NCBI GenBank assembly: GCA_963706285.1
Contig: CAVPLU010000013.1
Location: forward strand, 104,762 to 168,761
Direction: 5' to 3'
DNA length: 64,000 bases
DNA from: Candidatus Bathyarchaeota archaeon
Lineage (GTDB): Archaea; Thermoproteota; Bathyarchaeia; 40CM-2-53-6
Positions 13,245-42,931 of the stretch are shown piece after piece. Position numbers and translations under genes: made by a program. Each line of letters opens with the position of its first letter. The first letter of the stretch is position 1. Under the pieces are notes generated by a model, which was not told the DNA's origin, made no database searches, and was given only the letters and a program-made list of their open reading frames with translations.

Positions 13245-13371
13245 GGGGTTGGCAGCTGTCCAAGTTTCGCGTGGCCTTGCGGAACACACTACTGCCTGAA
13301 TCGCCTGGGAGATTCACTTCCGTGTTCGGAATGGGAACGGGTCCTAGCTCCCAGCTATGGCCGCCAGCTCC
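13245..13371 (-). rRNA. rrf: 5S ribosomal RNA
   Basis: GGCGGCCATAGC...ACCCGTTCCCATTCCGAACACGGAAGTGAA...CTGCC with pairing termini. Confidence 0.95.
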
Positions 13372-15615: not shown

Positions 15616-15836
15616 TGGTGGGGCCGAAGGGATTGTCATGGCGTGCCGCCATTTTGAACCCTCGACTTCCGCCGTTTTTCTTCGTCTACGGGTTTCTCCC
15701 GCGCTCCGGAAGATCGTCATCCCACATGGTCAGCAAACCCGTTGCATGCCAAAGGCTTCTGGAGCCCTTAACGGGGGTTGTCCTGTCGTCATCCCTGGCT
15801 AGATTCCGCCGAACCTTGATCATCGCCTACGGCCCC
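15616..15836 (-). tRNA. tRNA-Trp(CCA) with five introns
   Basis: Removing 15804-15826, 15768-15784, 15694-15758, 15667-15685 and 15633-15652 gives a 77-nt cloverleaf GGGGCCGTAGTCTAGCCAGGGATGACGACGGGCTCCAGACCCGTAGGTCGAGGGTTCAAATCCCTTCGGCCCCACCA. Confidence 0.92.
15694..15758 (-). ncRNA. Box C/D guide in tRNA-Trp 37/38 intron
   Basis: ACGGGTTT-G-CTGA is complementary to AAACCCGT of the precursor (N+5 rule points to C39). ATGACGA box followed by CTTCCGGAGC, a near-complement of GCTCCAGAAG. Confidence 0.75.
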
Positions 15837-16037
15837 ACTGGACGACGACGCTCTGGCCCCACCGAGCTAGACTCGCACGCGAACAACATATTTAATGTTT
15901 CACACAGAGCCGCGTTCTTGCGGCAATCCAACTCTAGACGCCCGACAAGAAAAGCCATCGACCTTCGATGACTGCCTTGTGAAGAACAGGCTCGTAATCA
16001 GTTAGTTGCGACCGAGGGCCTCAGTCAAAGCGTAGAC

Positions 16038-23914: not shown

Positions 23915-24008
23915 GTCGATCAACCGTAGATGTTCGACACCGACCAGTAGCTACTGAACCGTCATAAAGATTCTCATGAAAGCACAACTCACCCGAGGCT
24001 GCGAGTGT

Positions 24009-42635: not shown

Positions 42636-42773
42636 GAGATCTTCGACATGACAACCGTATTCGGACGTAAATGCGTTCTTGCGCGCCTCACTTGTCAACT
42701 CGGACAGTTTCCGTCGGCAAAGTCTTTTAGATGACTCGGTCTCGATACAGATCTTGTGGTGCCGGGAACACCT

Positions 42774-42931
42774 GCCGGGATATGAGTGATAGTCTCGCAT
42801 CCCGAAGGCCGAGTGGATTAACGACCCATGGTGGTCGGTCTATAGGCGCAGGCCTTGAGTCCGCAAAATGCCGGTCTGGAGAGCCTGTGGCCCTTTGGGC
42901 CTCGGGGGTTCGAATCCCTCTCCCGGCGCCA
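42774..42931 (+). tRNA. tRNA-Ser(TGA) with three introns
   Basis: Removing 42782-42806 (8/9), 42821-42843 (21/22) and 42860-42881 (37/38) gives an 88-nt cloverleaf with long variable arm, G73 and CCA. Confidence 0.9.

Follow-up and report, generated by a model that had tools for sequence, protein, structure and literature searches.

The DNA analysed here, a stretch of 64,000 nucleotides (nt) from Candidatus Bathyarchaeota archaeon (assembly GCA_963706285.1, contig CAVPLU010000013.1, positions 104,762 to 168,761 of the forward strand) and called the window below, contains three transfer RNA (tRNA) genes, for tRNA-Ser(UGA), tRNA-Ser(GGA) and tRNA-Trp. All three are heavily interrupted, as judged by reading of the sequence and by a custom finder. 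Our subject is a short element in the leader of the tRNA-Ser(UGA) gene, which copies the 5' strand of the gene's own acceptor stem and can pair with the 3' end of the same tRNA. Elements of this kind are specific for their cognate acceptor, are associated with introns lying close to the acceptor stem, are conserved, and form a helix that is thermodynamically preferred in the precursor. The genome of the window (G000; the window lies on its contig C13) comprises 2.13 megabases in 21 contigs and is 89% complete, with 7.5% contamination.

The tRNA-Ser(UGA) gene and its leader

The gene and its upstream region, in the coordinates of the window, are composed as follows.

42724..42731, + strand: TATA-like box CTTTTAGA, by reading the putative promoter of the precursor tRNA (pre-tRNA)
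42757..42767, + strand: leader element TGGTGCCGGGA, made up of TGGT and, after it, GCCGGGA as in the 5' acceptor strand
42768..42773, + strand: spacer ACACCT, separating the element from the mature 5' end (variants among orthologues: acacct, acggat, acgcac)
42774..42781, + strand: exon 1, tRNA-Ser(UGA) positions 1-8 (GCCGGGAU)
42782..42806, + strand: intron 1 (8/9), 25 nt, with CCCG (42801-42804) as the partner of C3-G6 in the central splice helix
42807..42821, + strand: exon 2, 5' part of the D-arm
42822..42844, + strand: intron 2 (D-loop), 23 nt; boundary ambiguous by about 1 nt, placed by comparison with orthologue L030
42845..42859, + strand: exon 3, 3' part of the D-arm and anticodon arm up to position 37
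42860..42881, + strand: intron 3 (canonical 37/38), 22 nt; absent from orthologues L018 and L019
42882..42931, + strand: exon 4, including the encoded CCA; its last 11 nt, 42921-42931 (TCCCGGCGCCA), are the partner of the element

The 5' strand GCCGGGA of the tRNA is located at 42774-42780, and the boundary of intron 1 is fixed by intronless orthologues, which read GCCGGGATGGCCGAG. When spliced in silico, the gene yields an 88-nt tRNA-Ser(tga) that ARAGORN recognises without its intron option, with an acceptor stem of 7 base pairs (bp) and the D, anticodon, long variable and T arms of a class II tRNA. The two segments TGGTGCCGGGA and TCCCGGCGCCA form 11 contiguous antiparallel pairs, in which TGGT is complementary to G73-C74-C75-A76 and the sole non-Watson-Crick pair is that of T42760 opposite G73. 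An initial annotation of the window had described this 11-nt pairing, including the CCA and a single G-U pair, and had also stated that the 8/9 intron makes use of acceptor bases 3-6; the former is exact at 42757-42767 and 42921-42931, and the latter agrees with the minimum-energy fold, in which CCCG of the intron pairs with C3-G6. The energy of the leader with its own 3' end, calculated with RNAduplex, was -23.3 kcal/mol, better than that of all 38 leaders from genes with other acceptors.

With regard to chance, the degenerate pairing pattern TGGYGYYGGGR has four matches in the window against 0.39 expected, a number reached by none of 100 shuffles, although two of the four are merely the reverse complements of two tRNA-Ser 3' ends. 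Since the pattern has 19 matches in 4.27 million genome positions, the chance for any given 40-nt leader is about 2e-4. Four additional genome matches (contigs C3, C10, C12 and C18) were checked as missed tRNA genes, and none of them has a T-arm. The gene is colinear from 42774 to 42931 and its leader copies a 5' strand, not a 3' half, which sets it apart from split or permuted tRNA genes. It is also not a case of an extended acceptor stem: the nucleotides before +1 are ACACCT, and the pairing segment, at -17 to -7, competes with positions 1-7. A mini-intron between the two Ser copies was considered and rejected by reading, as its central helix GGTG/CACC would yield a wrong mature sequence.

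Splice motif, acceptor stem and leader helix

Introns at 8/9, 9/10 or 10/11 are referred to here as acceptor-proximal. Six of the eight genes of G000 that contain such an intron were read for their splice motif, and the central 4-bp helix was found to take positions 3-6 in Ser and Cys, 4-7 in Arg and in the tRNA with acceptor GGGCCCG, and 5-8 in Trp and in the AGCCCGG tRNA. By reading, the partners within the introns are CCCG for C4-G7 of Arg, GCCG for C5-U8 of the AGCCCGG tRNA and CGGG for C4-G7 of the GGGCCCG tRNA, with three of four pairs formed in Cys. The motif of Arg(CCG), a gene with one intron only, can be read as a complete hBHBh' structure, with bulges UAU and AUG and both h and h' of 5 bp; its outer helix also takes G1-G3, so that positions 1-7 are all engaged. 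The bulges of tRNA-Ser(UGA) fit as well, with h of only 2 bp and an interrupted h', and its motif is thus of a relaxed form. Since the central helix takes acceptor nucleotides, splice motif and acceptor stem are mutually exclusive. Introns deeper in the D-loop create no such conflict with the acceptor.

The predicted fold of 42753-42931 contains both the splice helix and the leader helix. In the minimum-energy as well as the centroid structure, C3-U8 are paired with AUCCCG and the leader is paired with the 3' end (z = -5.03; none of 200 shuffles was as good). The pre-tRNA-Ser reached -92.3 kcal/mol with the leader, both helices being present, and -77.0 kcal/mol without it, in which case the splice helix was lost. 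Besides Ser, five other precursors (Trp, Cys, AGCCCGG, GGGCCCG and Pro-like) have the helix of leader and 3' end at minimum energy, and removal of the leader leads to formation of the acceptor stem and loss of the splice helix. As the leader replaces the native 5' strand, leader helix and native acceptor helix exclude each other, and in constrained folding of the unspliced precursors the native acceptor was less stable than the leader conformer, the difference being 11.5 kcal/mol for Ser, 7.2 for Arg and 6.3 for Cys. With respect to the enzymes that would act on such precursors, G000 encodes a full-length archaeal ribonuclease P (RNase P) RNA (183.7 bits) and two EndA paralogues, the genes for the two-subunit endonuclease being located at C12:149004-149243 and C6:75200-75433, and the products spliced in silico are recognised as intact tRNAs.

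Promoter-like boxes suggest that the leaders are transcribed. In ordinary genes a TATA-like box lies about 30-37 nt before +1. In genes with an element the box is further upstream, and its distance from the 11-nt element is 19-25 nt in most Trp genes, 26-30 nt in Ser and 18-21 nt in Cys; among the 12 Ser orthologue rows listed, only one departs from this spacing, and its box is a mis-pick. While the spacing of box and element is fairly constant, anything between 11 and 41 nt separates the element from +1. Boxes placed relative to the element in this way would make it the very 5' end of the primary transcript, and the Ser box CTTTTAGA would set the start of transcription about 2-4 nt upstream of the element.

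Leader elements and intron position in Bathyarchaeia

The initial annotation had linked the element to the intron in the acceptor strand and proposed a survey of leader complementarity against intron position. Such a survey was run in two genomes and in five sets of orthologues. Standard tools were of little help for this purpose. Default ARAGORN reported no tRNA gene in the window, and with introns allowed (-i) it recovered none of the three window genes and made 26 calls in the genome, mostly mis-modelled. The Rfam tRNA model at its gathering threshold found no tRNA gene in the window, and only 16 places above the cut-off, plus fragments, in G000, which has at least 41 tRNA genes. Automated annotation of such genomes will therefore badly under-report tRNAs. 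Because of these failures a custom finder was written, which relies on a T-arm, a 7-bp acceptor and an optional intron in the T-loop.

From G000, 41 tRNA genes were collected and 40 scored, one being located at a contig end; 34 of the 40 encode CCA. Near-identical copies on contig C20 were left out. These copies differ slightly in their flanks from their counterparts on C4 (for instance C20:1503-1610 and C4:222230-222337), which is consistent with strain heterogeneity or with the contamination estimate of 7.5%. According to their first intron, eight genes fall into the acceptor-proximal class and one has an intron inside the stem, while in 31 the D-arm follows directly. Automatic labels for acceptor-proximal introns were corrected by reading for three G000 genes and four Cys rows of the orthologue sets (L175 and L180 with, L193 and L201 without the intron), and all counts use the corrected labels.

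A strong element was defined in G000 as a duplex between leader and 3' end of -16 kcal/mol or below. Seven of the eight genes with an acceptor-proximal intron have such a duplex (-16.2 to -23.3 kcal/mol), each ranking 0 or 1 among foreign leaders, and it is found in 0/31 of the other genes (-1.7 to -14.3 kcal/mol). The association between intron and element is strong (Fisher p = 5.2e-7; Mann-Whitney p = 2.5e-5), and 57 of 1476 non-cognate combinations of leader and 3' end reached -16 kcal/mol. The second genome, G039, belongs to another family (f8), is 100% complete with 31% GC, and contains 39 detectable tRNA genes. Here, both genes with an acceptor-proximal intron (Trp and the GCCGCCG tRNA) carry a strong element (-18.3 and -19.9 kcal/mol), as opposed to 0/37 of the remaining genes (0 to -11.1 kcal/mol). 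Altogether, eight acceptors are each accompanied by a matching leader of their own, namely GCCGGGA, GGGGCCG (twice), GGGCGGG, GCCGGGG, AGCCCGG, GGGCCCG and GCCGCCG, in agreement with the suggestion of the initial annotation that the element follows its own tRNA and differs in sequence from that of Trp. Thus, elements of this kind are not equally common before other tRNAs, and the link with the intron stands in both genomes, although with exceptions in either direction (see below).

The other two tRNA genes of the window provide a second example of the element and a paralogue control.

15855..15863, - strand: leader element of tRNA-Trp, GGTGGGGCC, complementary to positions 67-75
15616..15836, - strand: tRNA-Trp(CCA) gene; intron at about 10/11, central helix of C5-U8 with GCGG; further introns, including one in the T-loop
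23793..23914, - strand: tRNA-Ser(GGA) gene; acceptor stem as in tRNA-Ser(UGA), D-arm following directly, no strong leader element

The Trp leader pairs with its 3' end at -23.1 kcal/mol (rank 0 of 38). The gene has four interruptions, among them the T-loop intron and a large intron in the anticodon loop. The sequence of this large intron (GGATGACGA ... TTCAGGAGCG ... GTGAAGA) is conserved across the order, and, like the known archaeal Trp intron, it may resemble a box C/D guide RNA. With regard to the paralogues, tRNA-Ser(UGA) at -23.3 kcal/mol compares with -12.5 kcal/mol for tRNA-Ser(GGA), and of two tRNAs with acceptor AGCCCGG the one with the intron has -16.5 and the one without it -7.8 kcal/mol. 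The initial annotation had used tRNA-Ser(GGA) as an internal negative control. It does share the acceptor and has no acceptor-proximal intron, but its leader is not free of complementarity: GGTGTCG (23935-23941, - strand) can form seven pairs with positions 69-75, two of them G-U, and its duplex ranks 6 of 38. This lies within background, and makes the gene a slightly less clean control than had been stated. A TATA-like box is present about 50-56 nt upstream of this gene, implying a leader of about 25 nt.

The orthologue sets were drawn from 41 genomes of the order, representing 10 families, and a strong element was here defined as a duplex of -15 kcal/mol or below. The numbers of sequences with a strong element were as follows.

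Arg(CCG): 10/10 with acceptor-proximal intron, 0/8 without
Cys: 17/17 with, 0/6 without
AGCCCGG tRNA: 9/9 with, 0/11 without
Ser(UGA): 14/21 with, 0/8 without
Trp: 11/11 with, 7/13 without

For Ser, Arg, Cys and the AGCCCGG tRNA, intron and element are jointly absent in several lineages. A group of Ser(UGA) genes from genera g2, g3 and g5 (L018-L020, L025, L026, L028 and L029) has a conserved leader that reads GACCTGAA[GC]GCGGG; in the four genes folded, this type of leader forms a hairpin of its own, and only -1 and -2 pair with G73 and C74. The genes of g2 and g3 also have a stronger helix within the intron.

Beyond the order, the architecture of the Ser(UGA) gene was searched with a class-wide pattern, which matched 21 genomes in a class sample of 401. 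This pattern excluded genus g1, as GATAT does not fit ATWA, and G000 itself therefore scores 0. Among 10 matching loci examined from other families, seven are tRNA-Ser(UGA) genes with an 8/9 intron and a leader complement, one of these having the identical TGGTGCCGGGA, and the other three showed no 3' end under a quick match. A phylum-wide pattern of the Trp type matched in 27 of 401 genomes, compared to about 17 matches of a reversed-pattern control. All nine of the out-of-class loci inspected were not tRNA genes, and hence gave no evidence for the element outside Bathyarchaeia.

The element is kept across genera, across families and beyond the order, while the spacers that adjoin it have diverged. 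In genus g1 the Ser element reads YGGTGCCGGGA in 8/8 genes, with a variable 6-nt spacer and upstream flank, and the Cys element GCCGGGG(G) is kept in four genera next to spacers of 5-13 unrelated nt. For Cys and Ser together, spacer length ranges from 0 to 13 nt, and the spacer sequence differs as well. At the eight positions opposite 73-66, 313 residues are identical to the perfect complement, 23 are compatible with G-U pairing (18 C>T and 5 A>G) and 32 are incompatible, the compatible changes lying inside the helices and the incompatible ones at helix ends, as read from the class strings. Variants include T or C opposite G73 in Ser, GGGGTT, GGGGCTG and GGGGTCG in Trp, and GGTAGCTTGG in the AGCCCGG tRNA. 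It should be kept in mind that true compensatory changes cannot occur here, since the 3' strand is invariant within one tRNA family. With regard to its extent, the complement often spans N73, C74 and C75 and sometimes A76, and it stops at C75 or A76, never entering the 3' trailer; Cys elements cover neither N73 nor the CCA.

As to the origin of the element, some copies directly abut the acceptor strand in tandem: GGGCCC followed by GGGCCCG, GCCGGGA followed by GCCGGGA in L011, and GGGCGGGTAT followed by GGGCGGGTAT in L152 and L153. In addition, a tandem GCGGCC-GCGGCCG is confined to G000 and its closest relative and seems to be young, and the leader of the Pro-like gene also copies the start of the D-arm. 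Such abutting copies point to tandem microduplication of the 5' strand as the likely origin. One may ask if the element is anything beyond that, i.e. a functionless relic of intron origin or of replication slippage which has duplicated the first 6-10 nt, and which is harmless because RNase P removes the leader. The abutting copies and the extended copy of the Pro-like leader are what such a relic would look like. We nevertheless regard this explanation as distinctly improbable: the element is conserved beside diverged spacers, changes inside the helices are read as G-U-compatible, the TATA-like boxes have moved with the element, and intron and element are absent together in several Ser, Arg, Cys and AGCCCGG lineages. 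Moreover, the complement of N73-C74-C75(-A76) lies outside any duplicated exon and is not explained by simple duplication. The view of the initial annotation that the element is selected for function and is not a chance duplication is thus supported by its conservation, by the nature of the helix changes and by the placement of the boxes.

The same material speaks to the gene model itself. Two identical 7-mers are indistinguishable in the mature sequence, and G000 has one gene (C13:56558) with an intron inside the acceptor stem, so the upstream copy might be taken as the real first exon and the downstream copy as part of a longer intron, in which case there would be no leader element. However, no U8 follows the upstream copies, although intronless orthologues show that it belongs to the tRNA (Ser GCCGGGAUGG, Cys GCCGGGGUGG and Arg GGGCGGGUAG), and many copies are incomplete as exons, G7 being absent in Trp and in L156, L157 and L160, and A7 in L030. 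In addition, it is only with the downstream copy that bulges and helices take the right geometry, as seen for Arg, and splicing from that copy yields intact tRNAs. A wrong gene model is accordingly extremely improbable.

Possible role of the element and related systems

We regard it as probable, although far from certain, that the element is a selected cis-acting decoy strand which leaves the 5' acceptor strand available to the bulge-helix-bulge motif. The pathway would be as follows. Transcription would start a few nt upstream of the element. The true 5' strand would then find its partner in the 3' part of the neighbouring intron, giving the 4-bp central helix of the bulge-helix-bulge, which for introns at 8/9, 9/10 and 10/11 would take acceptor nucleotides 3-6, 4-7 and 5-8, respectively. 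The 3' acceptor strand, which is made late, would tend to invade this short helix, but the leader would offer it a longer partner (7-11 bp) and so preserve the splice site as a substrate of the two-subunit splicing endonuclease. Upon removal of the intron the advantage of the leader helix would fall and the native acceptor would form, helped by tertiary folding, and RNase P would finally remove the leader and render the switch irreversible. Leader transcription, the effect on endonuclease cleavage and the resolution step are all inferences in this scheme. In its widest form the proposal becomes tentative, and we would stop short of calling it probable: the elements could constitute an undescribed class of cis-acting pre-tRNA element in Bathyarchaeia, an intramolecular 'anti-3'-strand' RNA chaperone that imposes an order of splicing, then acceptor folding, then RNase P cleavage.

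Several points weigh against a decoy strand. After removal of the acceptor-proximal intron in silico, the leader conformer is still ahead by 6.2 (Ser), 3.8 (Arg) and 3.3 (Cys) kcal/mol, which means that the switch back is not explained by secondary-structure energies alone. The 8/9 intron is present and the element absent in seven Ser(UGA) genes (g2, g3 and g5), and in G000 the gene at C4+155573 has a 9/10 intron with its central helix on 3-6 and no element in the predicted transcript (-9.4 kcal/mol). Conversely, seven Trp sequences of g2, g3 and f5 have a conserved element and no acceptor-proximal intron, as does C3-61464 of G000 with its tandem GCGGCC-GCGGCCG (-14.3 kcal/mol). The orthologue counts refer to distinct sequences that are phylogenetically non-independent, and both censuses are incomplete since an intron in the T stem or in the 3' acceptor strand hides a gene from the finder. 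The boxes were found by eye and with a loose regular expression, with several mis-picks, and the four public RNA runs examined were uninformative, containing only contigs of relatives (88-95% likeness) with no joints or defined ends.

The exceptions in both directions imply that the intron is a strong predictor of the element, yet the element may have a second role, in RNase P timing or in protection of the 3' end, or may outlive the intron. Such a role leads to the main rival explanation, in which the helix of leader and 3' end serves mainly for timing or protection: it would hide the 3' end and block RNase P, and perhaps aminoacylation and exonucleases, until the body of the precursor is processed, with help to the splice motif secondary or irrelevant. 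This agrees with the Trp genes of g2, g3 and f5, whose elements pair with the 3' end in the minimum-energy fold and often reach A76 while the introns do not touch the acceptor, with the frequent coverage of C74-C75-A76 elsewhere, and with the persistence of the leader helix after in-silico splicing. There is also a precedent in bacteria, where RNase P is reportedly inhibited when a leader lengthens the acceptor stem by pairing with the 3'-RCCA (PMC9433436). A general device of this sort should not, however, be confined to introns at 8/9-10/11. Nearly all tRNA genes of G000 have introns elsewhere (in the D-loop, anticodon loop or T-loop), and still none of the 31 without an acceptor-proximal intron has a strong element, nor has any of the 37 corresponding genes of G039; furthermore, Cys elements leave N73 and the CCA uncovered. 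We therefore consider timing or protection as the main function unlikely.

With the decoy strand as the preferred reading, the gene at G000:C13:56558-56725 (+ strand; orthologue L342) may be viewed in the same light. The gene is located outside the window, and its intron lies inside the acceptor stem, at about 3/4. The first four nucleotides of the intron, GTCG, complete exon GCG to a mimic of the full 5' strand, with the 3' strand as a possible partner, as if the decoy principle were realised here within an intron.

Precursor flanks that help to shape splicing substrates are known in other settings. In the split and permuted tRNAs of Nanoarchaeum, Caldivirga, Staphylothermus, Thermofilum and red algae, complementary leaders and trailers build the splice substrate (PMC4090602, PMC3218864, PMC4033280). 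The element has in common with these that a flank is complementary to another part of the precursor in the service of an endonuclease substrate, that the pairing is conserved, and that a distant promoter or long leader serves as a clue. The differences are as marked. In split and permuted tRNAs, leader and trailer pair with each other to form the bulge-helix-bulge and are cut off by the endonuclease, whereas in Bathyarchaeia the element belongs to a colinear gene and has the mature 3' acceptor strand and NCCA as its pairing partner, the leader carries no splice site, and its removal is presumably by RNase P. The proposed action is also indirect, namely sequestering of a competitor strand. Bacterial pre-tRNAs provide a further parallel, in that a leader pairs with discriminator and CCA of its own precursor and affects 5' maturation (PMC9433436). 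That pairing continues the native acceptor helix, and in ordinary Bathyarchaeia genes 1-3 leader nt are similarly often paired with N73-C74(-C75), such as GGT abutting +1 in L119; in contrast, the leader described here replaces the 5' strand over 7-8 bp from a location 0-30 nt upstream.

The introns at 8/9, 9/10 and 10/11 are themselves of the kind known from Thermoproteales, Asgard and others. Noncanonical archaeal introns have a 4-bp central helix of exon and intron and 3-nt bulges with the cut sites (bioRxiv 10.64898/2026.10.13.758758). As far as it is searchable, the literature on these introns treats the motif locally and mentions no leader element that resolves a conflict between motif and acceptor. 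Likewise, the openly accessible main texts searched, including the 2026 preprint on interrupted Asgard tRNAs, mention no colinear tRNA gene with introns whose leader would pair with its 3' acceptor strand.

Attenuators, anti-terminators and the rRNA leader that acts as a transient folding partner all make use of an upstream segment which competes for a downstream strand and thereby chooses between exclusive helices. The logic is the same as that proposed here, but these switches concern other molecules and processes, none of them in tRNA splicing, and the likeness is one of analogy only. We view the element as a variation on an established theme, in which precursor flanks help to shape the substrates of archaeal tRNA splicing; confirmation of the mechanism might make it a class of its own.

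The structural problem involved is seldom addressed: near the acceptor, the helix needed by the endonuclease requires exon nucleotides already used by the tRNA fold. A decoy element would be a concrete, testable and genome-encoded answer to this conflict, and one that is easily recognised. The decoy reading predicts an order of precursor processing and suggests how new introns become fixed, and it can be tested with a few in vitro transcripts and one recombinant enzyme. If the chaperone proposal holds, the element would have let introns colonise 8/9-10/11, its birth by microduplication would be a step in the gain of tRNA introns, and the principle may extend to other heavily interrupted archaeal tRNA sets. 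In practical terms, a leader copy of the 5' strand in combination with a displaced promoter offers a signal for gene finding in genomes whose tRNA genes mostly escape the standard tools.

Two further types of loci were seen in the course of the analysis. A common, conserved hairpin-like element of about 55 nt is present outside the window, at C4:81082-81354 (- strand) and C5:14250-14536 (+ strand) of G000, directly upstream of sequences resembling tRNA 3' halves (T-arm and 3' acceptor strand). No matching 5' strand was found within 450 nt of either locus, and the two may represent split-tRNA halves or what is left of integration sites. Finally, the window contains a free-standing gene for 5S ribosomal RNA at 13247-13368 on the - strand (Rfam RF00001, 80.6 bits).

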